From NCBI GenBank assembly GCA_020060775.1, contig JAGUZN010000220.1, positions 984-64,983 of the forward strand: a stretch of DNA of 64,000 nt. The letters run 5' to 3'. Below are positions 6,844-58,458 of this stretch, in pieces (positions within the stretch are counted from its first letter, which is position 1; each line of letters opens with the position of its first letter). The notes beneath the pieces are model-generated. The model searched no databases and was not told where the DNA came from. It saw only the letters and a program-made list of their open reading frames with translations. The position numbers were made by a program, and so were the translations under genes. This stretch comes from Armatimonadota bacterium (GTDB taxonomy: Bacteria > Armatimonadota > Hebobacteria > CAIYQO01).

Positions 6844-7290
6844 GTCTGCGGAGCAATGTTATGCAAATGCAATTCGTCGTACATCCGAGAACGTATGAGA
6901 TCAACGGCTATTTCTTTCAAGTGCTGTCATGTTGCGCGTTGACTGATGGGCAGGCAGCTAATGCTGCCATGCATTTTTATCAAACACATAAGCTAAAGAA
7001 GAAAGACAAAGGAAAATTAATTAAAGTCATAACGAGCCCTGATACGGATACTGCAGGAATCTTTGGGTAGCACGGCTACCTATGACTACAGATACGCCAA
7101 CCTAAGTTATGCAACGTGATCTGAAGGAAGCATTCAGCAGTATTACCAGGTTACTCCTACATGAGCGTGAGGAGTATTCATTAGGTCGGTCCAAAGACCG
7201 TGCTGATATTTTAAGCGCAGGGTCTCCAATTCCCTCATGGCAGCCCCTGCGACCATTACCTATGTGGATGGTCCTTCACTTATTTGATAC

Positions 7291-8298
7291 TTACAGATCA
7301 AGCAATGATGCCGAATTCTCTTGAAACAACACCCCCATGCGGATATACCGCTGCACCATCACATTCGACCGATGACCGGTCTGCTGCATGATAGATCGCT
7401 CGTTTGCACCTGCACGGGCGGCGGCGGTGCAGTGGCCGGCGCGCAGGGAGTGACCGCTGTAGCGTTTCGGATCAAGGCCGATCTCTTTCACCATCTTCTT
7501 GATGAGATTGGCGACGGCACGATCCGATAAGCGCTCACTGCAGAGTTTGTCATGACGGTTGATGCCGCGGAAGAGGGCGCCGCCGGTAATCCCGCTGGAT
7601 TCCAGCCAGGATTTCAAGGCACGCACTGGACAGGTTTCTTCATGAGTGCCAAATGGTATGGCGACCCAACGCCCTTCACCTTCTTGATCTGTTTTTGATC
7701 GGCGGAGGCAGATAACGACTCCTTCCTCCCTGAAGGTCAGGTCGGCGACATCAAAGGCGACCAACTCGGAGCGCCGGAAGGCGCCAGCGTATCCCAGGAG
7801 TAGCAGTGCGCGGTCCCGCCGGCCTTTCAATGTCTCTGGTAATACCGCCATGATGCGTCTCATGTCATCGGTCATCAAGGCATCGACCTGGCGGGCGGTG
7901 ACGCCGATCCGCCGGCGAATGCCGCGCATGACGGCCCGCACGGCGGCGTGTTGGGTGGGGGAGGGGTGGCCAGCGTGTTGGTGGATGGCGCTGATGGCGG
8001 CCATATAGCGCGAGAGCGTGCTGTACTTGTGGTCGGTCGTCGCCATCGCCGTCATGTAGCAGGCAATCGTCTCAGGGCTGGCCGGCATCGACGGCAAGTG
8101 GTATTGTTCGCACCAGGCCACGAACTGCTGCCAATCCCGCTCGTAGGCCTCCCGCGTGTGTTGCGAGATACCTTCCTCGATGAACTCCTGGACTTGCTCG
8201 ATCAGTGGAACGAGAAGGGTGTGATCGGGGTGCTGGTTGGCACTGGGCCCGATCCGGGCAGGCAGTGATGCTGGCTGGGTGATGGGAGCCTGATCCAT
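7291..8298 (-). CDS. Tyrosine recombinase / phage-type integrase (XerC/D-like)
   Basis: N-terminal SAM-like domain (TREAYERDWQQFVAWC). C-terminal catalytic signature RRSELVAF..HSLRAGHCT..TGHRSNVMVQRYIR (R..HxxR..H..Y). Confidence 0.85.
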   Translation of the reverse strand: MDQAPITQPASLPARIGPSANQHPDHTLLVPLIEQVQEFIEEGISQHTREAYERDWQQFVAWCEQYHLPSMPASPETIACYMTAMATTDHKYSTLSRYMAAISAIHQHAGHPSPTQHAAVRAVMRGIRRRIGVTARQVDALMTDDMRRIMAVLPETLKGRRDRALLLLGYAGAFRRSELVAFDVADLTFREEGVVICLRRSKTDQEGEGRWVAIPFGTHEETCPVRALKSWLESSGITGGALFRGINRHDKLCSERLSDRAVANLIKKMVKEIGLDPKRYSGHSLRAGHCTAAARAGANERSIMQQTGHRSNVMVQRYIRMGVLFQENSASLLDL

Positions 8299-8301
8299 TA
8301 A

Positions 8302-8519
8302 CTGAGTCTTATCGGAAGCTAGAATAGCTTCGAGCTCAGAATAGAGTCAAGTCGCGCCAGTTCAATCCTAAATGTGTTCCCCCTCGGGCTGTCCCCAGCC
8401 GTCATCCTCTGCATTTTCTACCCGAAATGCCTCTAGGCGAGTACGTTTGGCTACACATTTTGCCCTGGAGGTGCCATGTGTTCACGACAGATCGGTTTCT
8501 AGCTTCCGTTAAGACTCAG
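8302..8519. repeat. 23-bp inverted repeat pair enclosing a 172-bp segment (candidate invertible element or MITE)
   Basis: 8302-8324 is CTGAGTCTTATCGGAAGCTAGAA. The reverse complement of 8497-8519 is CTGAGTCTTAACGGAAGCTAGAA, 22/23 identical. The left repeat begins 4 nt from the recombinase start codon. Confidence 0.7.
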
Positions 8520-8561
8520 ATATGAGCTACAACGTGTCTGGTAACACCGGTAGGGGGCAGG

Positions 8562-8927
8562 GTGCGTAATACGTTACTTTTAGTTGGTGGCGGCGAATTA
8601 TCAACGCTCATCTACAAGCCTGCCCTGGAGGACGCCAATTTTCAGGTAATCCTTACGCCTGATGCACGGGTGGCAGTGCAAATGGTCATACAGTACCATG
8701 CTCAAAGTATTCTCATTGATGATTCGATTCAGCCCAGTCAAGCTGAGGAAATCATCACCAATATCCATCAACTCACCCCAACAGTTAAGAGCATTTTGCT
8801 CTGTGATGGCGATAATATCAGTGATAATGCTCTCCAGTACCTGTTTGATGGCATATATCAGAAAAGCTGGCCATTACCAGTTTTAGTCACACTGGTTCGT
8901 TTTCTTCTGTGTCAGCAGGAGTCCTAA
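8562..8927 (+). CDS. CheY-like receiver-domain protein, probably a pseudo-receiver
   Basis: 121 aa with a GTG start after GGGGGCAGG. REC-like layout LLLVGGG..ILIDDSI..SILLCDG..YQKSWP, but the N-terminal acidic DD pair is replaced by GG. The gene is AT-rich relative to its flanks. Confidence 0.4.
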   Translation: MRNTLLLVGGGELSTLIYKPALEDANFQVILTPDARVAVQMVIQYHAQSILIDDSIQPSQAEEIITNIHQLTPTVKSILLCDGDNISDNALQYLFDGIYQKSWPLPVLVTLVRFLLCQQES

Positions 8928-8964
8928 GCAACCCGGCGTTTGCTAGAGTGGAAGAATGGGAAGC

Positions 8965-9144
8965 TTGACAATCCAAGCTGAAGAGCGTATCGTTTCACCA
9001 TATTAATGCATACCTCAACTATGTCCGAGATGCATATCGCCGTCTGCATTACCTGGGAGACATAACCGTCGCATCCGGGCACGCTGCGCTTTTTTCACCT
9101 CTTCCCGGATGCCGGGAAGGGGTTTTCTTTTTCAGGGGGTCCGT
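8965..9144 (+). promoter_or_regulatory. Leader cassette X1: promoter, 19-codon uORF and intrinsic terminator upstream of a nucleotidyltransferase gene
   Basis: TTGACA 8965-8970, 17-nt spacer, TATCGT 8988-8993. uORF 9006-9065 encodes MHTSTMSEMHIAVCITWET*. Terminator at 9098-9132. Blocks CCGTCTG, TGGG, ATAACCGTCG, CCGGG and the terminator are shared with the cassette at 22590-22769. Confidence 0.55.
9098..9132 (+). terminator. Rho-independent terminator / attenuator hairpin
   Basis: CCTCTTCCCGG-ATG-CCGGGAAGGGG forms an 11-bp stem with one G-U pair, followed by TTTTCTTTTT. Confidence 0.7.
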
Positions 9145-9939
9145 TTGATTGCGCTTCGAGGCGATACCCGCTTGTTGCCTTTGGTCTCATGGTGGCAGAC
9201 AGAAATCCATACCGTGTTAAGCGACAAGCTGCAAGCGGTGGTGCTGGGCGGCAGCACGGTGCTTGGCGATTTCCAGCCGGGGTGGAGCGATGTCGATGTC
9301 TGCGTGGTGCTGCGTACGCCGATCACGGAAGCCGAAGGCGCTGTTATCGGACAGGTGCACGACGCCATGCGTGCCCACTTCATCGACGGTGGGCAAGATG
9401 GCTGGCGATCAGGTCAGGCCATTGAAGGTGCCTATATCACCGGCGAGATGTTGCAGTATGGACACGCTGGCACCTGTTACGTCGCCGGCGGTAGCACGCG
9501 CTGGTGGGGTGTGAAAGATCCTATTTCGCCGTTCGACCGCCTGATATATGCCCAACACGGTTGCTGGTTGTTTGGTGAAGAAGTGCCTATTGCCCTGCCA
9601 GATGGAAAGGCTTTGCGGGCACAATCTATCCGCGATTCGCAGGAATTCATAAACCCACCAGCCGGGTGCCTGGAATCCGCCATCTGGCTGGCCGGCATCA
9701 TGCACTGGTTGTCCCGCACGCTGGTCTTCTGGCGGGATGGGGAACTGGTATCCAAAACCGCCGCGCTGGAGCGCGAGGTCGCCGCTGGTAGACCGCTGGC
9801 GAGCGCCTTCATCCTGCCCCTGGCCTTGCGGCGGGAGGGGAGTGCAGCGTGCCGGCAGCATGTTGATGATCTTCGGTATAATTACCAGGCGAATCTTGAT
9901 ACGGCTGTGCAGTCATTGGTCGAAGTCGGACTGCTGTAA
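9145..9939 (+). CDS. Nucleotidyltransferase-domain protein (aminoglycoside/small-molecule adenylyltransferase-like)
   Basis: VVLGGSTVLGDFQPGWSDVDVCVVL matches the GS-x(n)-D-x-D polymerase-beta-type NTase motif. The ATG at 9109 lies inside the terminator hairpin, so I moved the start to TTG 9145, 5 nt after AGGGGG. Confidence 0.6.
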   Translation: MIALRGDTRLLPLVSWWQTEIHTVLSDKLQAVVLGGSTVLGDFQPGWSDVDVCVVLRTPITEAEGAVIGQVHDAMRAHFIDGGQDGWRSGQAIEGAYITGEMLQYGHAGTCYVAGGSTRWWGVKDPISPFDRLIYAQHGCWLFGEEVPIALPDGKALRAQSIRDSQEFINPPAGCLESAIWLAGIMHWLSRTLVFWRDGELVSKTAALEREVAAGRPLASAFILPLALRREGSAACRQHVDDLRYNYQANLDTAVQSLVEVGLL

Positions 9940-9951
9940 TAGGGAGGCTAT

Positions 9952-10497
9952 ATGTCCGGATGGATCGAGACTATGAGCAACGTGCAACTGCTACACCCGA
10001 CCACTGATATTGAGCCGGAATACCGGGCGTTCATCGCCGAATTTATCGAGCAGCAGGAGCCAGAGATGTTTTATCGTCTGCCGGGAGACGACTTCGCTGA
10101 ATTCGTGGCGCAGTTGCACCGAGAGGCGCGAGGCGAGGGGCTGCCGGACTGGGCCGTGCCGCAAAATACCCTCTGGGCGGTGCGCGACGCACGGCTGGTT
10201 GGCGTGTTGAAGCTGCGCCATCGCCTCACCCCGGCGCTAGAGAGCCGTGGCGGGCACATCGGCTACTTCGTGCGTCCCTCGGCGCGCGGGCGCGGAATTG
10301 CCACCCGCATGCTGGCGATGGCGCTCGACAAGGCACGAGCCCTTGGCCTCACCCGCGTGCTACTCACCTGCGACATTGACAACCATGCCTCAGCCCGCGT
10401 AATGGTGAAGAACGGCGGCGTGCGCACCACCGACAGCGCGGACCCCGGCACCGGGTTGCCGCTGGCGCGATATTGGATCGATTTGGAGACAAGATGA
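9952..10497 (+). CDS. GNAT-family N-acetyltransferase
   Basis: GHIGYFVRPSARGRGIATRMLAMALDKARALG matches the acetyl-CoA-binding motif A (R/Q-x-x-G-x-G/A). Confidence 0.75.
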   Translation: MSGWIETMSNVQLLHPTTDIEPEYRAFIAEFIEQQEPEMFYRLPGDDFAEFVAQLHREARGEGLPDWAVPQNTLWAVRDARLVGVLKLRHRLTPALESRGGHIGYFVRPSARGRGIATRMLAMALDKARALGLTRVLLTCDIDNHASARVMVKNGGVRTTDSADPGTGLPLARYWIDLETR

Positions 10498-33335: not shown

Positions 33336-33659
33336 CTCGGTTTGGTAAGGTTGGACCCTGTTACGTTATTGAGCTCGAATGCTTACCTGTAGACCAAGGG
33401 CACGTCCTTGCTCAACAGGCTGCTAGGCACCAGCACGGTCTGTTCAATATGCGCACGGGTAATCGTCCCCTTGGAGAAGTGACGGTATACCCATGCGCGC
33501 TTTTCATTCCCGCTCGGTCAGGTGAGTCACGGCGTCCAGCCGGCCCGGCACTATATGGGGGAGCCGAGCCTTATGGCTTATAATCGGTTGTGGACGTGGC
33601 AATGAGAATACGATCAGTACCGATACCACTATTTTGGGGGAAGGAAGGAATCCGCTGCT

Positions 33660-35342
33660 TTGCACCAAATACACTATTTGTGTGCCATCATGCCGATTAG
33701 GACTGATAATATGAGTTTGTCAACAAAAACTCCTCAAAATCCAGATCTGGCAAATCCTAGCAGTTGCCATTCCAGTTTAGGACCCCTTAGGCTGCCGCAG
33801 TCATTTTATGGCGATGCGTTCACGACGTTTCTATATGGAGCGGCGATATGCTGTATCGTTACGAAGGTCGATGCTGGTTATTCATGGTCTAATTTCGGTC
33901 TGTTGGCAATCATCTATATATTTTTTGATTGGGTTAGCAGAATTCTTTTACCATCATGTTTGCCCAATGACGACTTAGCTGTGAGAAATCGCATATACTT
34001 GAATGTGCTAAAAGCACTACTGGAAGCTGCAGGTTTATACTTGCTTACCGCTTTCCTTCTATCTGTTTTCACAACACCATTATACGGGTTATTTGCAGGA
34101 TTTTTGATCGTCAATTTATTGTGGAATTTGTTGTTGTTGTATATTATGGGTGGCCTTGGATGGAGGGACTTACAAGATGTTTGTTTTAAAGGTAATGGAA
34201 TGGATAACGAAGCTATAGCATTACATTCGTCGACCATTACGGAAATCGAAGCTCTAATAGAGAAGGCTGATATCTCTACTGACAATGCAAACACTAGTAG
34301 TCAAGTCATAAAAACGTATAATAATCACATAAAGCTTCGTAGTAGTATCAATTCAATAGGCGCAATCTACCGGATGCTCATACAATTGTTCGCATTTCAT
34401 GTTCGATATGGATATGTAGTTATTGTAATATTTGTTGCCAAGATGCTATTGGAGAGTACAACGAATACTTGGGGAAGTTTTCTGTTGAAAAAAACATATT
34501 TTTCTGTAGTGCTTGATTTCGCACAAGTCACAACAATGCACATAAGCATTTTTTGTGATAATGGCTATTTGGATGAGATATTTCTTACTGTATTAATATT
34601 AATACTTTGTGGTTTTGTTTTACGCTCTGTTAATATCAGTAATGTTTTTCAGAGTGATTGGTGGAAAAGTTACATTGCTAGTATTAAAGATAAAAACTAT
34701 GAAATGCTTGTCCCGTGGATGAAGATAATATGCAGTGTACCACTTTTCTTTGCTTGTTTGTACATATTATATATAATATGTTTTGTTGTATACACTTATT
34801 ACCCGCAGTTGTTCGCAGGTATTGATAGTGAAGGTGTAGGCATTGGCTTCCCAATCTTACTTTTTATTTATATTTTGTTGTTTTTCATACCTTTCTTATT
34901 TTTTAAATACGCACAACTTAATAAAATTATGAAAAAATCAATTGCTTCAAATGGAGATAACCATAAGAATCACGCCTCTATTTCTTGCTCATGCCCTCCT
35001 TCCAAAATCCAAGGAGAGGAGGAGAATAAAGCGATTGTCATTGAGAATTTACGATTTCAACAGGCTTGTAGAAATGGGTCATTATCACTTTATATCATTC
35101 TATTACTACTTTACTTCGCGTTGCCGATAAAAGACTTTGCAATATTTATTGCATTCCAGCAGGCCTGTGTTACGCTATTCCTATGTATCGCCGTATCTTG
35201 TCCACTTGAACAGAGAGATGAACCTATTGGCAACTTATGTCGAATGAACTCCCCGAGACCGACTTCGTGCCCTCCAAATATTAACGACGGGCTTGATGAT
35301 ACAACATCAGTGACGCCGAAAGAACAGGTAACAAGTTCATAG
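33660..35342 (+). CDS. Polytopic membrane protein of unknown function (about 11 hydrophobic segments)
   Basis: 560-aa ORF in an AT-rich segment (~36-40% GC). Repeated 18-25-residue hydrophobic stretches such as LYGLFAGFLIVNLLWNLLLLYIMGG and IGFPILLFIYILLFFIPFLFF. No family motif recognised and the start is uncertain. Confidence 0.6.
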   Translation: MHQIHYLCAIMPIRTDNMSLSTKTPQNPDLANPSSCHSSLGPLRLPQSFYGDAFTTFLYGAAICCIVTKVDAGYSWSNFGLLAIIYIFFDWVSRILLPSCLPNDDLAVRNRIYLNVLKALLEAAGLYLLTAFLLSVFTTPLYGLFAGFLIVNLLWNLLLLYIMGGLGWRDLQDVCFKGNGMDNEAIALHSSTITEIEALIEKADISTDNANTSSQVIKTYNNHIKLRSSINSIGAIYRMLIQLFAFHVRYGYVVIVIFVAKMLLESTTNTWGSFLLKKTYFSVVLDFAQVTTMHISIFCDNGYLDEIFLTVLILILCGFVLRSVNISNVFQSDWWKSYIASIKDKNYEMLVPWMKIICSVPLFFACLYILYIICFVVYTYYPQLFAGIDSEGVGIGFPILLFIYILLFFIPFLFFKYAQLNKIMKKSIASNGDNHKNHASISCSCPPSKIQGEEENKAIVIENLRFQQACRNGSLSLYIILLLLYFALPIKDFAIFIAFQQACVTLFLCIAVSCPLEQRDEPIGNLCRMNSPRPTSCPPNINDGLDDTTSVTPKEQVTSS

Positions 35343-35384
35343 TTAATGGTATATAAGTGATCATCAGATTGGAGTGACCAAGCG

Positions 35385-36842
35385 ATGTCTATGATTGATC
35401 TAGTCATAATAGGAGTTTATTTGATGGCGTTGTTCTGCTGGGCTATTTATATTGGCCTGCGAGAAAACGCCCAAGATTTTTTGGTTTTCTCGCGGCGTGC
35501 TCCTTTTGTGCTGGTATTGTTTTCTATTGTAGCTACCTGGGTTGGCGTTGGCACGACCGTAGTGACAGCGGCATCGGCATACGAATCCGGTATCTCACTA
35601 GGATTGATCGCCTGCCTTGGGGGCGTGTTGGGGTCTATCGGTGCCGCAATCTTTGCCCCTCGTCTGAAAGCGTTTGGAGACCGTTTCAACGCGCATACCA
35701 TCGGAGACTTCTTCCTGATCCGGTATTCAAACGGTGGACGCTTGATGGCTGGTGCACTGATAACAATCGTCTATTCACTGCTGACCGCCGCGCAACTCGT
35801 AGGGCTTGCAACGCTCTTGAAGGTTTGGACTGGGCTTCCTGTGGAGGTCGTCATCATTTTTGCTGCGTTTTCCACCGTAGCCTATACGGCGTTCGCTGGG
35901 ATCAAAAGCGATTTTTATACCGACATCATACATTTTATAGTTATGGCAATTGTTCTCTTTGTTATCCTATTGCCATTGACACTGGATAAAATTGGCGGAT
36001 TACATGGATTGCTGCGATTACCTCATACTTATTTCGATCCCTTCTCCTACGGAGGGCCAGCTCTATTCATCGCTGGAATGATCTTTGGCGCAGGCAGTGT
36101 TTTCGTGACCATGGAGCTTTGGCAACGCGTCTACGCATCAACAACCGGACGTGCCGCACGTATCTCGCTTGCAGTTGCCATCCTTCTTATCGTTCTCTTT
36201 TACGCGGTATCCACTGTGTTGGGTATGTCAGCAAAGCTACTATTACCGAATCTGCCGAATCGTGATTTTGCCTTGTTTGCGATGATGAAAGAGTATTTAC
36301 CTACAGGTATGCTGGGGCTAGGGATGTCAGGATTCATGGCGATTATTCTGTCTACCTTAAACTCAACACTGATGGTAACCTCTGCGACCTTCACCAAGGA
36401 TTTCTGGTGTGGAGCTCTTAATAAATCCGCTGATGACCAAAAGGCATTGTTATCTGTGGGCCGAATTTCTACATTTGTGAGCGGAGCTATTGGTCTGGGG
36501 ATTGCCTTGATACTACCTGATCTGGTTGCCTTAAGTGTCAATGGCATGTTCATGTTGCTGATCATCCTTCCAGCCATCGCTGGGGGATTCTTCTGGCGAC
36601 GTGCTACTGCCACGGCTGCAACGCTTTCCGTCTTCGCAGGAGCGCTTGTGACAGTGATTTTCTTGAAAATCGATGCTGGTATCGCGTTTGTGCCTGGTTT
36701 TCTCACAAGCCTTCTAGTTTTCGTTATTGGCTCTCTTGTCACTGAGCACTCTATAGAAGAAAATATTGGAGTTGTTTCTATGTGGCGAGGGAAAGCGGAA
36801 ATCCCGTCGATGCATGAAGGAGATGTTCATGACTTACGTTAA
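35385..36842 (+). CDS. Sodium:solute symporter family (SSF) transporter
   Basis: IIGVYLMALFCWAIYIGLRENAQDFLVFSRRAPFVLVLFSIVATWVGVGT is the typical SSF N-terminus. About 13 TM segments. Confidence 0.75.
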   Translation: MSMIDLVIIGVYLMALFCWAIYIGLRENAQDFLVFSRRAPFVLVLFSIVATWVGVGTTVVTAASAYESGISLGLIACLGGVLGSIGAAIFAPRLKAFGDRFNAHTIGDFFLIRYSNGGRLMAGALITIVYSLLTAAQLVGLATLLKVWTGLPVEVVIIFAAFSTVAYTAFAGIKSDFYTDIIHFIVMAIVLFVILLPLTLDKIGGLHGLLRLPHTYFDPFSYGGPALFIAGMIFGAGSVFVTMELWQRVYASTTGRAARISLAVAILLIVLFYAVSTVLGMSAKLLLPNLPNRDFALFAMMKEYLPTGMLGLGMSGFMAIILSTLNSTLMVTSATFTKDFWCGALNKSADDQKALLSVGRISTFVSGAIGLGIALILPDLVALSVNGMFMLLIILPAIAGGFFWRRATATAATLSVFAGALVTVIFLKIDAGIAFVPGFLTSLLVFVIGSLVTEHSIEENIGVVSMWRGKAEIPSMHEGDVHDLR

Positions 36843-37932
36843 TACTGTGGAGCAAGTAAGCGATAAGCTGATGGCTGCTACCGATTCTGCGAATTGTTCT
36901 GCGATGTCAGCCTTACTCCACCAGGTGTGCCAATCGCTTCAAGAGTCTGACGCATCATTCTTGCGTCATTGGTATAATAGTCGGCTTACACGCGCCTGCG
37001 AAAACCCTATGCTTGGCGAAAAAGCCGTTACCATCTTCGCAGATTTGCTAGGAATTACCGTCGAGACGGCACAATGCGTTGAGAAGCCATGGATGCTTCT
37101 ATACATCCATGCACTCTTATTAGATGACATGATTGATTATATCCCTAGAGAAGAATCAAAAAAAGTTCAATCATTATGCAGCGCTTTCGATAGGGAACAC
37201 AATAAAGTATGTGAGCTGCTATTGAATGAAAATTTTGTGGTGTATTCACATCACCATCAGCGCTTCAATGCTGAAGCATGGGCAGCTATAACTTACGAGA
37301 TTGAATGGTCAAAAGGAACTAGATTCACATCACATAATGAAGCGCCACGTCAGCAAGGCCTCAAAGCCGCTCTCGCAAAGTCGTGTGCTACCATGCTTAT
37401 GCTTGCTGAACGTGGTATACCTCTTTCATCAGAACAGGAAGAGGGCATTATTACATTATGCGAAGGTATTCAACTTCTAGACGATTTTGCTGATATGACA
37501 GAAGATTATATGCAAGGACGTATGAATAGGTTGTTGAATACAACATATCGATGGATAAGGAGAAATCTGCCATGCATAGATATAGCTTATCTGGGCAAAT
37601 ACCAGCTACTCGTCTCTGCGATTCTTTCTTCTGCGATTACCTGCACATGGATTGATGCGGCAAATCGATATGAGCAGACATTGCAGATATTTAAACCCTC
37701 TAGTGAGTGCTGGACTGCTCAATATTTTTTGCAACAATCAGTGGAATGTCGACTATGCAGCACTGCATTAACTGATTTACTCACGCAAAATCGTTGCCTG
37801 TTGGATCAACTCATCACAGCTCTGAGTGTGAACGAAGAAGAATTAGCGTGTAAGTTAACAACCGGATGCCTAGCCGGTTTATGGCAAGATATTCGCTATA
37901 TTATTGGGACAGGACCAAAAGCAAGTAATTGA
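36829..37932 (+). CDS. Isoprenoid-synthase-fold protein (polyprenyl synthetase/terpene-synthase-like) with two Asp-rich motifs
   Basis: IHALLLDDMIDY is a first DDxxD motif. CEGIQLLDDFADMTEDY matches the second G-x-x-Q-x-x-DDxxD motif. Start is ATG 36829, 6 nt after GAAGGAG, overlapping the symporter 3' end. Confidence 0.5.
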   Translation: MTYVNTVEQVSDKLMAATDSANCSAMSALLHQVCQSLQESDASFLRHWYNSRLTRACENPMLGEKAVTIFADLLGITVETAQCVEKPWMLLYIHALLLDDMIDYIPREESKKVQSLCSAFDREHNKVCELLLNENFVVYSHHHQRFNAEAWAAITYEIEWSKGTRFTSHNEAPRQQGLKAALAKSCATMLMLAERGIPLSSEQEEGIITLCEGIQLLDDFADMTEDYMQGRMNRLLNTTYRWIRRNLPCIDIAYLGKYQLLVSAILSSAITCTWIDAANRYEQTLQIFKPSSECWTAQYFLQQSVECRLCSTALTDLLTQNRCLLDQLITALSVNEEELACKLTTGCLAGLWQDIRYIIGTGPKASN

Positions 37933-38309
37933 CCGTGGGCAATTCCATCATCGCCTGGGCAATATAGACACTTTTTTCTGAATTAGGTGACAGTATGGGC
38001 AAACTGAAGTGTTCTCAGGAGGCGCGTTTTTTCTTCCGGCATTTTGCCCGGCGTCGTCGCATCTCCTCATAATCGGGTAACGCGTATGCCGGTTCTTCCC
38101 CCTGTGCCCTGGCAGCTTTAGCGACTTGGCACCTGAGTACCCCACGTGCGAAGATATCGACGAGTTCCGCCAGGCGGGCCTCGGGGGTCATCTTGGTCGG
38201 GTCGATGGTGGTATTGAACATGGGACACACCCCTTTCATGAACGTATGACGGACAATACCTCAACATCGGCTGACATGGGAAGGGGATGGCGGAAGATTG
38301 TTTTTGAGG

Positions 38310-39698
38310 ATAACGTAGGATATTTTTCGCACTTTCACCGAGGGGTTGCGGTGTAGCCCTTTCGCTGAGTAGAGTGTAAGCGCCAACTTACCATACTCAC
38401 GAAAGGGACTACACACGATGAACACTACGACAATCACTGGTGAGAGTCAAGCCCAAGCCGGGCTGGTGACGATCAATGAGGGGGAGCTGCGGGCGCATCT
38501 CGACCAGATCGTCACCGGCGCGGTGGAAGAGACGCTGAACCAATTGCTTGACGCGGAAGCGGAGGCGTTGTGCCAGGCGCGACGCTATGAGCGGACGGCG
38601 ACGCGGCAAGATACGCGGGCCGGGCATTACGCGCGTAAGCTCCAGACGCGGGCGGGCGAGGTGACGCTGAAGGTGCCGAAACTGCGGCAGCTGACCTTTG
38701 AGACGGCGATCATCGAGCGCTACCAGCGCCGGGAAGCCTCGGTGGAAGAGGCGCTGATCGAGATGTACCTCGCCGGGGTGAGCGTCCGGCGGGTGGAAGA
38801 CATCACCGAGGCGCTGTGGGGCACGAAGGTGAGCGCCTCGACGGTGAGTGACTTGAATCAGAAGCTCTACCTGCGCCTGGACGACTGGTTGGCCCGTCCG
38901 TTGACCGGGGACTTTGCCTACGTCTATCTGGACGGGCTCTGGCTGAAGAAGAGTTGGGGCGGCGAGGTGCAGACGGTCTCGGTGCTGGTGGCGGTGGGGG
39001 TGAGCGCCGACGGCTACCGGGAGATCCTGGGAGTCGCCGAAGGCATGAAGGAGGATACCGCAAGTTGGCGGGACTTCCTGCGGGGGATGAGGGCGCGGGG
39101 ATTGCAGGGTATCCGGCTGGTGGTCTCCGATTGCTGCCTGGGGCTGGTGGAGGCGCTGGGCGAGGTCTTCCCCGAGGCTGCTTGGCAGCGGTGCGTGGTG
39201 CACTTCTACCGCAATGTGCTGGGACAGGTGCCGCGGGGTAAGAGCCGGGAGGTGGCGACGATGCTGAAGGCGATTCATGCCCAGGAGGATCGCACGGCTG
39301 CCCTGCAGAAAGCAGAGGATGTCGCCGGGAAACTCCGGGGGCTGAAGCTGGAGAAGGCGGCCAAGGTGCTCCAAGCGGGCATCGCCGATACGCTGGCGTA
39401 CTATGCCTTCCCGAGTGAGCACTGGCGGAGTCTGCGTACGAATAATCCGTTGGAACGACTGAATCGAGAGATCCGTCGGCGGACCCGCGTGGTGGGCTGT
39501 TTCCCCGATGGCCGCTCGGCGGTGATGCTGGTGACCGCGCGCCTGCGGTATCTGGCCAGTAAAGACTGGGGGACCAAGCGGTATTTGAACATGCAACGCC
39601 TCTGGGACGCGGCGCCTTCCGGGGAGGAGGGCGCGTAGCGCGGAGGACAATCAGGCGCTCATACTCTACAAAAAGTGCGAAAAACTCTGGACACTACC
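38310..39698 (+). mobile_element. IS256-family insertion sequence (~1.39 kb) with a target-site duplication
   Basis: Single mutator-type transposase gene. Imperfect terminal inverted repeats share a perfect 13-bp core TTTTTCGCACTTT (38323-38335 and the reverse complement of 39672-39684). Flanked by the direct repeat TTTTTGAGG at 38301-38309 and 39699-39707. Confidence 0.85.
38418..39638 (+). CDS. IS256-family (mutator-type) transposase
   Basis: LNQLLDAEAEALCQARRYERT..RAGHYARKLQTRAGEVTLKVPKLR..IERYQRRE..MYLAGVSVRRVEDI..YLDGLWLK matches the canonical IS256 Tnp pattern. Confidence 0.9.
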   Translation: MNTTTITGESQAQAGLVTINEGELRAHLDQIVTGAVEETLNQLLDAEAEALCQARRYERTATRQDTRAGHYARKLQTRAGEVTLKVPKLRQLTFETAIIERYQRREASVEEALIEMYLAGVSVRRVEDITEALWGTKVSASTVSDLNQKLYLRLDDWLARPLTGDFAYVYLDGLWLKKSWGGEVQTVSVLVAVGVSADGYREILGVAEGMKEDTASWRDFLRGMRARGLQGIRLVVSDCCLGLVEALGEVFPEAAWQRCVVHFYRNVLGQVPRGKSREVATMLKAIHAQEDRTAALQKAEDVAGKLRGLKLEKAAKVLQAGIADTLAYYAFPSEHWRSLRTNNPLERLNREIRRRTRVVGCFPDGRSAVMLVTARLRYLASKDWGTKRYLNMQRLWDAAPSGEEGA

Positions 39699-53339: not shown

Positions 53340-53407
53340 GGTTGCAGTCATCCGCCCCCAACTCCCCCTGCCTGCGGAATTTGCACAGCTTAACCGCCAT
53401 CCCCGCC

Positions 53408-53480
53408 GTTCTCAAGAAAAGTGTCGTAAAGCTGCACATATTCCCTTGACAAGAGGTGCAACACTGGAGGCGATCACTGT
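53408..53480 (+). promoter_or_regulatory. Conserved upstream block (promoter/operator candidate) of secreted-protein gene A
   Basis: Shares TCAAGAAAGTG, CTGCACATAT, CCTTGACAA and GGCGATCA blocks with 54795-54868. TTGACA lies at 53446-53451, 150 nt before the ATG. Confidence 0.5.
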
Positions 53481-53595
53481 CCACGCTGTCGTTTCGCCGG
53501 TCATGTACCTGGTCGCGCGGGGATCGGTTACACACAGCGTGCGCTCGGTGAACATACGAGAACACTGTCACAGGGAACAAAAGGAGGATCTCCCT

Positions 53596-54630
53596 ATGCT
53601 TAGGATGATGGCCGTTCTCGCGGTGGGGGGCGCGATGCTCATCAGCAGCCTCGCGTACGCTGCCCCGAGGGAGCTTTCGAGTGGTGACCTGGACACCGTC
53701 GCGGCTGGTGCGTACATCGACCAGTTCATTCCGACGATGCCGAATTCCGTGAATACCAATGCCGAATTCGCCTATGGCGACATTGCCGAAGCCGTGGGCG
53801 GCGCGGCGATCGTGGGTGATGCCAACGAAGTGACGTTGGCCGGCGCGACATGCGATGGCATTGCCGTGATTGGTAATGACAACATTACCGCTGACAACTC
53901 CAATGTGGTGGACGACGGCGCCGAGGTGGCGATCGCCGGCAATCACAACTCTGCCCTGCGCATCGATCAGGAAGATGCCGTGGCTGCGCTGGTGATTGGC
54001 CCCAATGCCACGTTCGATATCACCTTCAACGATGTTGAAGGCCTGATCGACGACGGTTCCGCCGTCGTCATCGGCGACAATAACCTGGTGGACGTGTACA
54101 TGGATGACACGGACGTCTATGGCACCATTGGCGGTAATTTCAGCCTTGTCGATACGAATACGGCAACTGCGACGATTGCGCAAACCAATACCGCCAACGC
54201 GAGTGGCGAAAGCAGTGCCGATATCACGCAGGCCAACATCGCCAACATCACCATCAACCAGAATGGCGATAACGACGATGCCTATGGCGTCATTGCGAAG
54301 GAAGCCAAGGTCGATCACGCCTTCAACGTGGATGAGCTCTACGTTGACGTGTCAGCGGATATCTGTGGTTCCTTCAACAAGGAAGACACCGCGATTAGCA
54401 TCTGCGGGCAGAATGGCGTATCCACCAATGTGAACGGCAATGCGGCCGGCCTGCAGGAAATCGGCTCATTGCTCAACACCACGAACGCCGCTGCCTCCGG
54501 CACCGGCGCGTTGGCCGATAACGGCTCGAGCATCTCGGCTGATGCCTTTGCGGACACCGCCGCCACCCAGATCGTGTTGAACGGCGTGTGCGTGGGGATC
54601 GGCATCTTCGTCGATGGTGGTGCTCGATAG
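53596..54630 (+). CDS. Secreted acidic repeat protein A (beta-solenoid-like) with a post-signal double-glycine-type propeptide
   Basis: AAGGAGGA RBS. Signal peptide MLRMMAVLAVGGAMLISSLAYA, then APRELSSGDLDTVAAG. Six repeats of the type hhhG(D/N)xN (AAIVGDAN, IAVIGNDN, VAIAGNHN, LVIGPNAT, AVVIGDNN, GTIGGNFS). Four Cys. C-terminal QIVLNGVCVGIGIFVDGG. Confidence 0.7.
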   Translation: MLRMMAVLAVGGAMLISSLAYAAPRELSSGDLDTVAAGAYIDQFIPTMPNSVNTNAEFAYGDIAEAVGGAAIVGDANEVTLAGATCDGIAVIGNDNITADNSNVVDDGAEVAIAGNHNSALRIDQEDAVAALVIGPNATFDITFNDVEGLIDDGSAVVIGDNNLVDVYMDDTDVYGTIGGNFSLVDTNTATATIAQTNTANASGESSADITQANIANITINQNGDNDDAYGVIAKEAKVDHAFNVDELYVDVSADICGSFNKEDTAISICGQNGVSTNVNGNAAGLQEIGSLLNTTNAAASGTGALADNGSSISADAFADTAATQIVLNGVCVGIGIFVDGGAR

Positions 54631-54663
54631 ACCATCGCGGCTGATAACAGGTGAAACCAGGTG

Positions 54664-54697
54664 TGCGCACCCCGGGCATGCAATGGCTCGGGGTGCG
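54664..54697 (+). terminator. Hairpin after gene A (weak U-tract)
   Basis: GCGCACCCCG (54664-54673) pairs with CGGGGTGCGT (54688-54697), followed by TGCTTAGTGTTG. Confidence 0.4.
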
Positions 54698-54794
54698 TTG
54701 CTTAGTGTTGATACCCTGCGGAGCCCCGGAAGAGGGAGTGGATGAGAAAGTTGACAGATGCTCGGTTTTGCACAGGTTCTCCACCAGACGGCTT

Positions 54795-54868
54795 GTTCGT
54801 CAAGAAAGTGACGCCACTCCTGCACATATCTCCTTGACAATCGGTGTGATACTGAGGGCGATCATCGT
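54795..54868 (+). promoter_or_regulatory. Conserved upstream block (promoter/operator candidate) of secreted-protein gene B
   Basis: Paralogous to 53408-53480. TTGACA lies at 54834-54839, 136 nt before the ATG. Confidence 0.5.
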
Positions 54869-54969
54869 ACCGCCAACCCGCATGGCTGGTCGGGGTACTT
54901 CCCGCGCGACGACCCAGACAGGGACGCCGGAACGGTGAGACTATCACTGGGAAGTAAGGAGGATCTCCC

Positions 54970-55857
54970 ATGAAGACGAATGTGGGCGCGTTGCTGGTGG
55001 CAGGGCTTTTCCTCTGCAGCAGCATCGCAATCGCCGCACCGAAAGCACTTTCGAGTGCCGAGCTGGATGGCGTGGCGGCCGGGTTTGGTAACTGGGCCCC
55101 CCCGTCGACGAACAATACCCCGCAAAACATCCCCTTTATGGTGACCGAGGATGTCGCGGTGGCTGAACTCGGTGGACTGGCGATTGACGGTAACGAGAAC
55201 GAATACAAAGAGGCCTTTGCATCTGAAGATGCTATTGCCGTGATCGGCAATGACAACGAGACGATCGATGGCAGCAATTTCGTTGATGGTGATGGTGACT
55301 GCGAGATTGCCATCGCCGGCGAGATGAACGAAGCCATCTCGATCGAGCAGGATGCCGACTTCGCGCTGGTGGCCGGTGAGAACCTGTCGCTGAACGCGAC
55401 CTATAACGAAATCGGCAGTGTGGACGAGTCGGCGGTCGTGCTCGGCACCAACAATCACGTGACGGTGACGCAGGACGACACCTATATCGATGGTTTCATC
55501 GGCAACGGTGGCTACGGTGTGATTGCCAAGGAAGCCTGTGTCGTAGATTCCTTCAACACCAGCATCGTCGAGACCTATGTCACGGTGACCATTGAAGATT
55601 CGTTCAACTGCATTTCCAACACCCTGGACATCTCCGGCCAGAACAACATGACCGCGCTGGTGAATGCCAATACGTTGGGCGATCAGTACATCGGCGTGGC
55701 CGTGAACGTGACTAACGCGGCTGCGACCTCGAGTGCGCCTGGTCCGTCGGCGCCGGTGGTGGCGACCGCGCAAACGGCGGTTACCCAGGTTGTGGTCAAC
55801 GGCTCCTGCTTCTTCGGCATCGGAGTCATTGATCTCTTCCCTGGTAATGGCGGTTAA
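54970..55857 (+). CDS. Secreted acidic repeat protein B (paralogue of A)
   Basis: Same RBS context (AAGGAGGATCTCCC-ATG). Signal MKTNVGALLVAGLFLCSSIAIA, then APKALSSAELDGVAAG. Repeats IAVIGNDN, IAIAGEMN, AVVLGTNN. The shared YGVIAKEA box, four Cys and C-terminal QVVVNGSCFFGIGVIDLF are all present. Confidence 0.7.
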   Translation: MKTNVGALLVAGLFLCSSIAIAAPKALSSAELDGVAAGFGNWAPPSTNNTPQNIPFMVTEDVAVAELGGLAIDGNENEYKEAFASEDAIAVIGNDNETIDGSNFVDGDGDCEIAIAGEMNEAISIEQDADFALVAGENLSLNATYNEIGSVDESAVVLGTNNHVTVTQDDTYIDGFIGNGGYGVIAKEACVVDSFNTSIVETYVTVTIEDSFNCISNTLDISGQNNMTALVNANTLGDQYIGVAVNVTNAAATSSAPGPSAPVVATAQTAVTQVVVNGSCFFGIGVIDLFPGNGG

Positions 55858-55910
55858 GTCGCCGCAGTCGGTTCGAACGCAAGGCGGAAGGCTTTGTCGT
55901 TCGTCTGCAC

Positions 55911-55934
55911 GGGGGCCGGGCTCACCCGGCCCCC
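55911..55934 (+). other. Intercistronic GC hairpin between genes B and C
   Basis: GGGGGCCGGG-CTCA-CCCGGCCCCC forms a perfect 10-bp stem with a 4-nt loop and no U-tract. It lies 20 nt before the start of gene C. Confidence 0.6.
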
Positions 55935-55953
55935 ACCGAGATAGGAGGGAGTG

Positions 55954-56484
55954 ATGACCACGAAGATTCTGCGATGGATGCTGCTCGGTGTCCTGAGCAT
56001 CCTGTGCATCAGCATCGTGGCTGCGGCGACTCCCCGCCCGTTGGCCGACCACCAGTTGGATGACGTGTACGCTGCGGGGTTCGATGTACAGGTCGATTTT
56101 AACATGGATGTTGCGGCGGAACGGCCGGAATCGGTCATTTTGCTATCCGGCGATCAACAAGCGTTGGAGTCGCTCGCCGGTCAGGGGATCACCCTGACGC
56201 GCACCATGGGCGGCGGGCGCAACACCGCCGGGCTCGACCCGAACGGCACCTATGTGCCGAATTTGCAAAACCTGACCAATAACACGATCAATCTCTCTGG
56301 AAACGCGTTGCAGAACGCGACGAGCCTGCTCAACATTTTTGCGTTGGAAGGCGATGTCGCGGTCGGTCTGAACCTGAACGTGGTGGTAAACCCGGTGAAC
56401 AGTCCGGTGAATGTGTCACAAATGAACCTAAACTGGGGCACACTCAATCTTTCGAATGCGTTGCCGACATTCGCTTCCCCGTGA
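55954..56484 (+). CDS. Secreted Asn/Leu-rich protein C with the same post-signal propeptide motif
   Basis: Signal MTTKILRWMLLGVLSILCISIVAA, then ATPRPLADHQLDDVYAAG. The C-terminal half is N-rich (NLQNLTNNTINLSGNALQNATSLLN..LNLNVVVNPVNSPVNVSQMNLNWG). Confidence 0.6.
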   Translation: MTTKILRWMLLGVLSILCISIVAAATPRPLADHQLDDVYAAGFDVQVDFNMDVAAERPESVILLSGDQQALESLAGQGITLTRTMGGGRNTAGLDPNGTYVPNLQNLTNNTINLSGNALQNATSLLNIFALEGDVAVGLNLNVVVNPVNSPVNVSQMNLNWGTLNLSNALPTFASP

Positions 56485-56524
56485 AACGAGTAGACTAGAG
56501 GAGAAGCGTAACCCCGGAGGACGT

Positions 56525-57247
56525 ATGCGAAAGTTGAACCATCTGGTCACGATGACCGTGTTGGTATGGTGGGTTCTACTGCGAACCTCACCCGCGCTCG
56601 CGGGTGAGGTTCGCGTCCCCACCTCATCGTTTGGCGCCGGCATTTCGGTGAGCGTTGAGGTGAAGAGCATCAAAGAGATGCGCGAGGACGAGATGGTGCT
56701 GCAGCGGCTGGACTACAGTTGCGGGTCAGCCGCCCTCTCCACGATGTTCACGTCCTACCTGCACCAGGCCTACACGGAGGAGGAGATCATCGACTTTCTC
56801 CTGCAGAGCGGCAATATGCAAAAGTTTCTGGCGCGCAAAGGGTTTTCCATGCTTGACCTGAAACGCTTTGCGGAAGCGCATGGGGTCAAGGCGATCGGCT
56901 ATGAACTGGACCTGGAGAGCCTGGCAGAACTGAACCAGCCGGTGCTCATCCCGCTCTTCCGCAAAGCACAGGATATGCGTCACTTTGTGATCTTCCGTGG
57001 CATGCATGATGGCCGTGTCTTCCTGGCAGACCCGGCGGTGGGGCGTACGGTTATTCCCGTTGCGCAGTTTGAAGAGGAATGGACGCCGCGCGTCGGCATG
57101 GTCTTCCAGCGCCCGGGCTGGCCGACATGCGACGTGCATGCGCTGGCGGTTGAGGATCGCGATCGCATTTATCTGGATACCGAGCAAGTACGCGCCTTGA
57201 TTACCAATACCGTGGCGGACGTCTTCCACCAGGCGAATGAGTTTTAA
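56525..57247 (+). CDS. Stand-alone, signal-peptide-bearing C39-family cysteine peptidase
   Basis: Signal MRKLNHLVTMTVLVWWVLLRTSPALAGE. Catalytic context is VLQRLDYSCGSAALSTMF (Q..C), HFVIFRG (H) and FLADPAVG (D). No ABC-transporter domains are attached. Confidence 0.75.
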   Translation: MRKLNHLVTMTVLVWWVLLRTSPALAGEVRVPTSSFGAGISVSVEVKSIKEMREDEMVLQRLDYSCGSAALSTMFTSYLHQAYTEEEIIDFLLQSGNMQKFLARKGFSMLDLKRFAEAHGVKAIGYELDLESLAELNQPVLIPLFRKAQDMRHFVIFRGMHDGRVFLADPAVGRTVIPVAQFEEEWTPRVGMVFQRPGWPTCDVHALAVEDRDRIYLDTEQVRALITNTVADVFHQANEF

Positions 57248-57363
57248 ATTTACCGTGTGAACCGTCAACATATACCGATGGCATCCCACTGTGATGGGAT
57301 CGGCAGTCGAGAGAAAACGATCGAAGAGTGATTAAAAACACGAGCTGAGAGGAGAAGATATCC

Positions 57364-58458
57364 GTGCGTATCACACCGGTTTTTGTTGCAGTGCTGGCAG
57401 CGCTGTGGTGCTGCCTGATGTCTGCCGCTACGGCACAGGTCACGCAATTACCCGGCATTCCTGCGGAAACCAGCCCGTTGCCCGTGGAAGACACGGCACC
57501 TGCCCCCCTACCCACCGGCGAGGGAGAGGACGAGGTGGCGCCACCGCCGGCCGAAGAGGCGGCGTTACCCTCGCAGGTACGGCGGGCGGACCTGATGATC
57601 AAGCGCGGCGAAGCTGAGTTGGAATGGCGCGTGTCCTACTCGCATTTCTCCTCCAACACCCTGTTTATCGATGGCGTGGCCATGTTGCCGATCATGGTTA
57701 TCGGCAATGTGGCGGTCGAACGCGTGCGGCGCGACCTGATCATCACGTCGGCGGCGGTGCGCTACGGGTTGCAGGACAATCTGGAGGGCGAGGTTCGCCT
57801 CCCCTTCCGCTACCAGTTCGAACGCCGGGCTGTTCCCGATGCCTCGCCCCCGCAGGAAGATACGCTCAACGGCTTCGGCCTGGGTGATATCGAAGGGGCA
57901 CTGTATTACCAACTTCCCAAGACACCGCAGAGCACCGTGCGGTGGATCGTCAGCGCCGGGGTGAAAACCGCTACCGGCAAGGATATCTTCGAAATCGATA
58001 CCAACGAGGAAGTCCCACTGGGCTCGGGGTTCTGGAGTTCGAAGTTCGGCATCACCGGCATGAAGATCGCCGATCCCGCCGCGATCTACTGGAACGCGGG
58101 CTTCACCTATAACTGGCTGCGGGAGAATATCCGCATCGTCTCGACAGATCAGACGACCGGCGACACCGTAGTCAGTTACGTCAATATCAAACCGGGCAAC
58201 ACTATCGATTTCGGCGGCGGCGTGGCCTATGCGCTGAATCCCAAACTCTCCCTCAACATGGGCGTGTCCGCCAGCTTTAGCGGTTCGACCACCTCAAACG
58301 ACCGGCGCGTGCCCAACACCGCGGTGACCAGCGCCACCCTCCGGTTAGGGGCGGTGTGGGTAGGGGAAGTCCTGCCGGTTGATCTCTCGCTCGGCATCGG
58401 GCTCACGGAAGACTCTCCGGACTTCACGCTCGAATTCCGTCAGAACTATCGATTTTGA
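57364..58458 (+). CDS. Outer-membrane beta-barrel protein (MetA-pathway/transporter-like family)
   Basis: Signal MRITPVFVAVLAALWCCLMSAATAQ, then a Pro/Glu/Ala-rich linker. Alternating beta-strand pattern with GFGLGDIEG and KTATGKD..PLGSGFWS motifs. The C-terminal LEFRQNYRF ends in an aromatic residue, a beta-signal. Confidence 0.7.
   Translation: MRITPVFVAVLAALWCCLMSAATAQVTQLPGIPAETSPLPVEDTAPAPLPTGEGEDEVAPPPAEEAALPSQVRRADLMIKRGEAELEWRVSYSHFSSNTLFIDGVAMLPIMVIGNVAVERVRRDLIITSAAVRYGLQDNLEGEVRLPFRYQFERRAVPDASPPQEDTLNGFGLGDIEGALYYQLPKTPQSTVRWIVSAGVKTATGKDIFEIDTNEEVPLGSGFWSSKFGITGMKIADPAAIYWNAGFTYNWLRENIRIVSTDQTTGDTVVSYVNIKPGNTIDFGGGVAYALNPKLSLNMGVSASFSGSTTSNDRRVPNTAVTSATLRLGAVWVGEVLPVDLSLGIGLTEDSPDFTLEFRQNYRF

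Follow-up and report, generated by a model that had tools for sequence, protein, structure and literature searches.

How proteins that carry a normal Sec signal peptide with a double-glycine-type leader directly behind it might be matured and brought to the cell surface is the question raised by a five-gene locus of an Armatimonadota bacterium. The locus lies in a stretch of 64,000 nucleotides, here called the window, in which the genes A to E follow one another head to tail on the plus strand at 53596-58458, with a good Shine-Dalgarno (SD) site before each of them. A, B and C encode putative cargo proteins, D a stand-alone C39 cysteine peptidase and E a beta-barrel outer-membrane protein. A preliminary description, made from the sequence alone, had read these genes as a new export system that was "analogous but sequence-distinct" from the Fap amyloid system of Pseudomonas. 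Its observation was confirmed and its interpretation was supported in part: the two-step logic of Sec export, periplasmic C39 peptidase and outer-membrane barrel holds up, with the leader as a tag recurring beside D/E-type gene pairs in many phyla, and the notion of a new export system does not. The operon would instead encode a divergent form, from Armatimonadota, of the FapD/FapF- and FilB/FilC-type systems for secretion and assembly in two steps, a reading to which we assign a probability of about 0.6.

Signal peptides were called by eye and with a simple hydrophobicity rule, and the Sec signals and post-signal segments of A, B and C were found to have exactly the sequences reported for them before. 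All three N-termini begin with positive charge and go on to a hydrophobic core that leads to a signal-peptidase site of the AxA type. In each protein a segment of 15-17 residues with double-glycine-leader spacing follows the signal directly. Counted back from its end, the segment of A and B has Leu at -12, Asp or Glu at -8, Leu at -7, Val at -4, Ala at -2 and Gly at -1. The densest invariant columns of the A/B family fall within it (A22, A23, P24, L27, D33, V35, A37 and G38 in the numbering of B), and the family similarity drops off immediately past AG.

The occurrence of this leader was followed in 84 sequences, made up of 80 loci fetched with an alignment of D, three loci (L081-L083) obtained by exact look-up, and the window. 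A strict regular expression applied to six-frame translations of 81 of them (the window and the first 80 loci) returned 10 matches, all 10 directly post-signal. A looser search found that many loci encode several proteins in which the signal is followed by (M/L)xP-[LIM]-D-D-x-[EDA]-L-[SA]-x-V-[ST]-G-[QGR]-D-G-[VI]-S; these are the proteins of Pfam DUF6160 and NCBIfam FilA, matches to which were found near D homologues in Proteobacteria and Desulfobacterota. When a leader matrix of 18 columns, built from 91 distinct instances, was run at a threshold of at least 14 bits with reversed sequences as decoys, the 84 sequences gave 140 matches and the decoys 1. The great part of the matches (129/140) lie behind a signal-peptide core, spread over 54 of the 84 sequences, and A, B and C, scoring 23-29 bits, are the sole matches in the whole 64-kb window. 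By both counts, that of the regular expression and that of the matrix, the claim that the motif goes beyond chance was upheld. In ~11 of the 30 matrix-negative loci a protein of FapE-like type, which reads ..[DE]xxLxxxRGG and then F, is encoded just downstream of the peptidase.

Leader-bearing loci were found in Armatimonadota, Aquificales, Omnitrophota, Desulfobacterota, Burkholderiales, Pseudomonas and Halomonadaceae. Aligned on Val -4, their consensus is L(-12) D D x E/D(-8) L(-7) S x V(-4) S/T G/A(-2) Q/G/A/R(-1), the spacing of which is that of class II bacteriocin and microcin leaders. The leader is common to proteins without detectable similarity of their mature parts, namely A/B as against C, DUF6160/FilA and FapE. 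Judged from these sequences, it is real, specific and general, and would be a shared hallmark of the FapD/FapF-FilB/FilC superfamily. It is not unique to this locus, since FilA/DUF6160 proteins and genuine FapE have it. Three small proteins of 81-91 amino acids (P0162, P0163 and P0164) carry the same signal and leader (..AAPVSLSNAQMDTVAAG..) in front of short unrelated mature parts. The leader may thus be a portable module found on small peptides too, as these proteins suggest.

D matched Pfam Peptidase_C39 (PF03412) with an E-value of 3.4e-20. Its catalytic residues Q60, C66, H153 and D169 never vary among 25 aligned homologues of 195-320 residues, each of which has a signal-like N-terminus and no transporter domain. 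D likewise has its own signal and is devoid of transmembrane and ATPase domains, just as had been described. The solved structures nearest to D are those of the double-glycine proteases LahT150 (6MPZ) and PCAT1, and the homologues closest to it, with 50-57% identity, were found in metagenome-assembled genomes of Armatimonadota. Among the NCBIfam models D scored best with FilB (122.9 bits; cut-off 475), and its score with FapD was 99.9 bits against a cut-off of 330; D is a homologue of FapD and not its orthologue. The last ~50 residues of D (57098-57247 of the window) form a tail outside the C39 domain. In D homologues it closes with a conserved, clade-specific motif, the final residue of which is aromatic: Armatimonadota have ..HQANEF and Burkholderiales ..ADLF.

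E aligned with the sequence of the FapF structure (PDB 5O65) over residues 75-363 with a phmmer E-value of 5e-21, and it scored 99.8 bits with the NCBIfam FapF model (cut-off 700) and 65.1 bits with FilC (cut-off 630). The signal, the Pro/Glu-rich linker (~50 amino acids) and the terminal ...YRF noted earlier for this outer-membrane protein were all seen, a plug-helix region and the barrel lying between linker and terminus. The comparison of D and E with hidden Markov models (HMMs) gave the Peptidase_C39 match and the FapF and FilC matches, and it spoke against the word "analogous": D is truly homologous to FapD/FilB and E to FapF/FilC, and for this reason the operon belongs to a divergent branch of a known superfamily and is not a new export system. 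Because the scores of D and E lie far below the FilB, FapD, FapF and FilC cut-offs, the operon is a third, Armatimonadota branch of the FapD/FapF and FilB/FilC superfamily.

An E-like gene stands beside the D-like gene in 79 of the 84 sequences, directly downstream on the same strand in 50 of the 84 and convergent in 22. This adjacency, together with the leader matches in 54 sequences, bore out the co-occurrence that had been anticipated. The order [1-3 cargo]-C-D-E is kept in four other Armatimonadota contigs (L001, L081, L082 and L083), where the C homologue has 178 amino acids, is 40-53% identical to C, occurs in single copy and is always encoded directly upstream of the peptidase. In L083 the sole cargo is a protein of 1448 amino acids (5018-9364) with a signal and no leader; the C homologue adjoining this giant cargo (9428-9967) retains the leader. 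The L083 pattern parallels Fap, where FapE alone bears the leader. A further branch, found in Halomonadaceae and others (L023 6371-12041; similar in L043, L047, L051, L074 and L078), has a FapF-like outer-membrane protein convergent to the peptidase, a FapE-like ..EEMRGG/F protein between them and, upstream, a Gly/Asp-rich protein of 380 amino acids with a signal. An adjacent open reading frame (ORF) bears GESGTGKE, which we take to be typical of sigma-54 activators, and this branch is neither Fap nor Fil at the NCBIfam cut-offs.

For the comparison with Fap, 80 Pseudomonas-type fap loci from metagenomes (L084-L163) were fetched with the FapF barrel sequence, and FapA to FapE of these loci pass the NCBIfam equivalog cut-offs. 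In 73 of the 80 loci FapE (e.g. L085 5860-6609) has a signal followed by FKPIE-[LI]-K-D-x-E-[LM]-A-x-L-R-G-R-[YF]-VMPGRI, for example FKPIELKDSEMAELRGR and then YVMPGRI, with spacing equal to that of the operon leader; FapB and FapC of the 80 loci are without a leader. The pattern predicts a FapD cleavage site in FapE at the leader end. In earlier work the Fap proteins were described as being without canonical C39 sequences and the FapD target as unclear, the first ~70 residues of FapE were not represented among the peptides seen, the FapD catalytic Cys was required for FapC secretion and FapF was demonstrated to be the Fap channel (Rouse et al, 2017; PMC5557850). A 2018 review listed co-localised fapD/fapF homologues in five further phyla with the substrate undetermined (PMC6173800), and reviews up to December 2025 state that FapD is merely "thought to" process FapE. 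No description of the post-signal leader was found in the literature searched, where the FapD/FapE and "FapF-like" searches were mostly swamped by unrelated terms.

The operon is like Fap in having a Sec-exported periplasmic C39 peptidase (FapD) and a plugged outer-membrane barrel (FapF, which is 12-stranded), of which D and E are homologues, in the Sec signals on all components, and in the post-signal leader on the protein beside the peptidase (the minor subunit FapE there, C here). C and FapE thus share a peptidase-adjacent position, single copy and the leader, and when they were compared by hhalign the signal and leader alone aligned (probability 12%, E-value 0.0024). A and B have a Cys near the C-terminus, as do FapC and FapE, whose C-terminal Cys residues were described before (PMC3684753). 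The operon is unlike Fap in the scores of D (99.9 against the FapD cut-off of 330) and E (99.8 against the FapF cut-off of 700), in the lack of the FapF coiled coil in E, in the presence of the leader on all three cargo proteins as against FapE alone, in the order cargo-C-D-E as against A-B-C-D-E-F, and in its host, an Armatimonadota bacterium as against Proteobacteria. A, B and C gave zero matches at an E-value of 1 or less to the NCBIfam models of FapA, FapB, FapC and FapE, and no FapA-like gene was found in the operon. In Fap, FapB and FapC are the amyloid subunits, whose imperfect repeats are rich in Asn and Gln, and FapA is a chaperone.

The likeness to Fil, the fimbriae or putative pilus system FilA-F of Acinetobacter, lies in the FilB-type C39 peptidase, FilB being the best NCBIfam match of D, and in the FilC-type outer-membrane protein. 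Fil loci have several subunit genes each, and every subunit has a Sec signal followed by L-D-D-x-E-L-S-x-V-S-G-[QGR], to which the Sec signal and L..xEL..V.G. segment of A, B and C correspond. In contrast to the DUF6160 family, A, B and C are without the C-terminal ..W.H motif, their leader ends in AG and not in G-[QGR], and D and E stay below the FilB (475) and FilC (630) cut-offs; with these two models the scores of a Fil-like locus of Pseudomonas were 293 and 320. A, B and C gave zero matches to the DUF6160 and FilA models.

When the PDB sequences were searched with a DUF6160 protein, 9XFV was found, entitled "bacteria pilus (like)" and "pilus-like-alpha", a filament from cave drip water solved at 2.9-3.4 Å by cryo-electron microscopy, the sequence of which was identified from the density (PMC12956863). 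The DUF6160 protein of L007 (3576-4211) matched it with an E-value of 5.9e-50, chain residue 1 being precursor residue 38: the chain starts DGVSIAGDL.. right behind the L007 leader end ..MTAIDDSALSQVSGQ and ends ..WMWAH. DUF6160/FilA proteins form helical pili, as this structure tells, and the signal and leader are outside the ordered subunit. The start of the chain fits exactly what is predicted of cleavage between -1 and +1. Since the leader end of C can be aligned with the 9XFV site, mature C is more likely to begin with GFDVQV.. than with FDVQV... The depositors of 9XFV drew no link to a C39/FapF-type secretion system. PDB searches with two other leader-bearing subunit types gave zero structures.

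That the segment is a double-glycine-type leader, as first proposed, is supported by its spacing, by its likeness to the microcin V leader and by the start of 9XFV. The microcin V leader MRTLTLNELDSVSGG has 15 amino acids and is cleaved by the C39 domain of CvaB (PMC10231218); it is identical to PKALSSAELDGVAAG of B at 6 of 15 positions, with equal length and spacing. The operon is like the peptidase-containing ATP-binding cassette (ABC) transporters and the microcin V-CvaB pair in the C39 fold with the Q/C/H/D set of D. It is unlike them in that the leader stands behind a Sec signal, whereas theirs is at the extreme N-terminus and replaces the signal, and in that D is signal-bearing, free and periplasmic, whereas the C39 of CvaB is a cytoplasmic domain of an ABC exporter. 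In addition, the outer membrane would be passed via a FapF-type barrel here and is passed via TolC there, and the cargo consists of putative structural proteins of 17-35 kDa as against small peptides.

A and B are paralogues with ~40% identity, acidic and poor in Lys and Arg (D+E 13.7% and K+R 2.1% in A; 12.9% and 1.4% in B), and C is rich in Asn (11%) and Leu (15%), all of which agrees with the preliminary description. Other details of it had to be corrected. The hhhGxxN rungs number five each in A and B and not six, spaced 19-25 residues apart (P <= 0.0005 against shuffles). Of the four Cys taken as conserved just the C-terminal one aligns between A and B, and zero are invariant family-wide. 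The proposed C-terminal motif Q[IV]V[LV]NG.C..IG[IV] is reduced to Q..x..N (in B, Q273 and N277) when the whole family is considered. Members of the A/B family have 244 to >570 amino acids in total; the signal and leader and a C-terminal domain of ~110 residues are conserved, and the repeat region between them varies. A word-indexed search of 5.8 billion proteins returned A and B alone, a profile search 12 proteins, Armatimonadota wherever named, and 35 matches came from 1.84 billion cluster representatives searched exhaustively with an HMM. A, B and C gave nothing meaningful against Pfam and NCBIfam, and the A/B profile gave zero matches to the PDB sequences. The mature domain of C was detected in Armatimonadota loci only. 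By these searches the cargo families appear lineage-specific and novel. As with FapE, hhalign of C against A/B aligned the signal and leader alone, and homology of the mature domain of C to A/B or to FapE was therefore dropped. AlphaFold2 models were unusable both for B, with a 12-sequence alignment (predicted local distance difference test (pLDDT) 41, predicted template modelling score (pTM) 0.25), and for C as a single sequence (pLDDT 43); shallow alignments or natively unfolded secretion substrates could be the cause of the low pLDDT.

On the preferred reading, A, B and C would first cross the inner membrane by Sec and be cut by signal peptidase I after AxA. D would then recognise the 16-17-residue double-glycine-type leader in the periplasm and remove it; the spacing of the motif, the genome comparisons and PDB 9XFV predict cuts at VAAG/AYIDQF in A, at VAAG/FGNW in B and at VYAA/GFDV or VYAAG/FDV in C. 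The unfolded, acidic, Lys/Arg-poor cargo would pass through the FapF-like barrel E, as its homology suggests. More speculatively, A and B could make up the bulk of a surface structure, a fibre or an adhesin of ~20-residue repeats, and C, which is single-copy and better conserved, might be a minor subunit with a FapE-like role as initiator, anchor or nucleator. What is new here is a lineage-specific variant with novel cargo families, a coiled-coil-free channel and leaders on three substrates.

Several points weigh against this reading. The cleavage of the leader is a prediction for every member of the family. The leader is not a universal requirement for export, because the exported proteins FapB and FapC, and the 1448-residue cargo of L083, are without it. 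The 9XFV structure is not proof of cleavage, since modelled residues only were deposited and the leader could be present in a disordered state. The leader matrix was trained on the loci it scored, which brings some circularity into its counts (140 against 1); controls with decoys, by position and over the whole window lessen this circularity without removing it, and they favour specificity. The cut-site residues are AG, with Ala at -2, and not GG, and a scan of leader peptides with the NCBIfam GG-leader HMMs gave no significant match, the best being bacteriocin-like (E-value 0.13) for a DUF6160 leader; because these scans were not significant, the link to double-glycine leaders rests on spacing, the microcin V comparison and co-occurrence with C39. 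By inspection, the linker of E (residues 25-74) is rich in Pro, Glu and Ala, with ~11 Pro, and is for this reason unable to form a coiled coil of the FapF type; the periplasmic coiled coil of FapF was reported to be essential for secretion and to be found in all Fap homologues (PMC6173795). Finally, a beta-solenoid or fibre formed by A and B is unproven, given the AlphaFold pLDDT of 41.

Because FapB, FapC and the L083 cargo are without a leader, the main alternative is a channel gated by the cleavage of a single subunit that bears the leader. The leader would then be a docking or targeting tag for D or E, most cargo would stay uncleaved, and D would open the channel by cutting either the linker of E or a single activating substrate, which would be C in this operon and FapE in Fap. 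FapE as the sole leader carrier in genuine Fap operons would suit this, as would L083, where the giant cargo has no leader and its C homologue has one. C and FapE are both single-copy, peptidase-adjacent and better conserved than the main cargo, and Rouse et al. suggested that processing of FapE or FapF activates Fap secretion (PMC5557850). We nevertheless consider this account unlikely, the least so among the alternatives, as the leader of the major cargo is strongly conserved in the window and in 33 of the 35 A/B family representatives, the major subunit of 9XFV begins right behind its leader, and the catalytic set of D is complete.

It is still less probable that the segment belongs to the structure of the mature subunit, for instance as a polymerisation extension, with D acting on another substrate or in housekeeping. 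N-terminal extensions drive the assembly of chaperone-usher pili, which gives this idea a precedent, and cleavage in the leader-bearing family is so far predicted. However, a segment of this kind would be expected neither in common between proteins without detectable mature similarity nor outside the ordered 9XFV subunit, it is spaced like a helical GG leader and not like an alternating beta-strand, and it co-occurs with a C39 peptidase gene.

The nap island of Neisseria offers another model, in which A, B and C would be antimicrobial or autolysis factors exported in a bacteriocin-like way via a FapF-like pore. This island encodes the GG-motif peptides NapA-C, the stand-alone C39 peptidase NapP and the FapF homologue NapF; periplasmic cleavage was proposed for it, and a Sec signal before the leader was not described (2025; PMC11798529). 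The combination of GG-motif cargo, stand-alone C39 peptidase and FapF-like channel is the same in both. The Nap cargo, however, consists of small cationic lytic peptides, the inner-membrane route of which is unclear, with a holin proposed, whereas A and B, at ~30 kDa, are large repeat proteins of strongly acidic composition whose Sec signals are clear, and not cationic peptides of <10 kDa. Moreover, no immunity-like or regulator gene was found in the operon, which has conserved chromosomal synteny and is not an island. Toxin export of this kind seems very improbable here. Least probable of all is that E is an uptake channel for hydrophobic compounds of the COG4313/MetA-pathway type with incidental neighbours: its score with Pfam Phenol_MetA_deg (23.1 bits) is borderline above the cut-off of 22 and FapF is structurally related to COG4313 channels, the operons of which were reported without C39 peptidases (PMC6173800), but the FapF match is far stronger (E-value 5e-21 and 99.8 bits), E lies directly downstream of a C39 peptidase gene with such pairing in 79/84 sequences, and the five genes lie close together on a single strand in an order kept in relatives.

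The reading of the operon as a FapD/FapF- and FilB/FilC-type system can be carried further, tentatively and at somewhat less than even odds: a microcin-V-like post-Sec leader might serve a pathway that spans phyla (Fap via FapE, Fil/DUF6160 and Armatimonadota) as its common tag for maturation and export, with all three substrates of the operon cut after AG and A and B forming an undescribed class of acidic-repeat fibre. The question of the substrate of FapD-type C39 peptidases has been open since 2013-2017, and the leader is a concrete, conserved candidate for their recognition site. It makes substrate recognition by the FapD family testable, including that of the medically relevant Fap of Pseudomonas and Fil of Acinetobacter. 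This type of secretion is extended to Armatimonadota, with two new cargo families, and as a portable module the leader could aid the prediction of secreted fibre proteins in genomes and the engineering of export. The wider result, that the leader would be a hallmark of the superfamily, lies outside the window and is of more interest than the operon itself.

Features of the operon and of its upstream regions (window coordinates; residues are numbered within each protein)
Feature	Position	Strand	Remarks
Conserved region upstream of A	53366-53595	+	TTTGCACAG at 53380, CTGCACATAT at 53432, CCTTGACAA at 53444, SD AAGGAGGATCTCCC at 53581
A, cargo, 344 aa (amino acids)	53596-54630	+	from sequence; without Pfam/NCBIfam family
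A signal (Sec-type)	residues 1-22, 53596-53661	+	by inspection; reads ...SSLAYA
A leader APRELSSGDLDTVAAG	residues 23-38, 53662-53709	+	followed by AYIDQF
A mature part			acidic repeats with five hhhGxxN rungs, then conserved C-terminal domain GVIAKE...SFN...GQN...TQIVLNG
Conserved region upstream of B	54753-54969	+	TTTGCACAG at 54767, CTGCACATAT at 54820, CCTTGACAA at 54832, SD at 54956
B, cargo, 295 aa, paralogue of A	54970-55857	+	
B signal	residues 1-22, 54970-55035	+	reads ...SSIAIA
B leader APKALSSAELDGVAAG	residues 23-38, 55036-55083	+	followed by FGNW
C, Asn/Leu-rich, 177 aa	55951-56484	+	start GTG 55951 or ATG 55954
C signal	residues 1-26	+	reads ...SIVAAA
C leader TPRPLADHQLDDVYAAG	residues 27-43, 56029-56079	+	followed by FDV
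D, stand-alone C39 cysteine peptidase, 240 aa	56525-57247	+	signal ...TSPALA, then GEV
E, FapF-type outer-membrane beta-barrel, 364 aa	57364-58458	+	ends ...NYRF

The region upstream of B was found by alignment to be a duplicate of that upstream of A, and both genes have the identical SD-start AAGGAGGATCTCCC-ATG. A stretch of ~230 nucleotides is conserved before every major cargo gene in the window and in L081, L001 and L082, that is, across genomes whose cargo proteins share just 30-35% identity; the upstream region of C is without this conservation. The blocks common to the cargo upstream regions are TTTGCACAG, CAAGAAAGTG, GGTGCGAGACTGG, CGC.GCG and AAGGAGGATCTCCCGATG, and the cargo SD is placed within a small GGAG-GAT-CTCC hairpin. 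An Rfam scan of the conserved region gave zero matches, its consensus fold was weak, and a scan for promoters and terminators stayed at chance level. From its sequence, the region is probably a promoter or regulator site together with a long 5' leader.

The guanine-plus-cytosine (GC) content of the operon is in line with its neighbourhood, and the flanking genes are syntenic, an upstream amidohydrolase and AP_endonuc_2 gene being common to the window and L081 and a downstream SMC gene being shared with L082. Because of this unremarkable GC content and the shared flanking genes in relatives, vertical inheritance is indicated and a mobile island was rejected. Elsewhere in the window, a stretch at 33600-39650 has a low GC content of 0.40-0.45 as against ~0.60 in the rest. 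It holds a sodium:solute symporter gene (35385-36842) and two ORFs without a Pfam match, has an IS256/Mutator-family transposase gene (38418-39638) next to it, and is probably horizontally acquired DNA unconnected with the operon.

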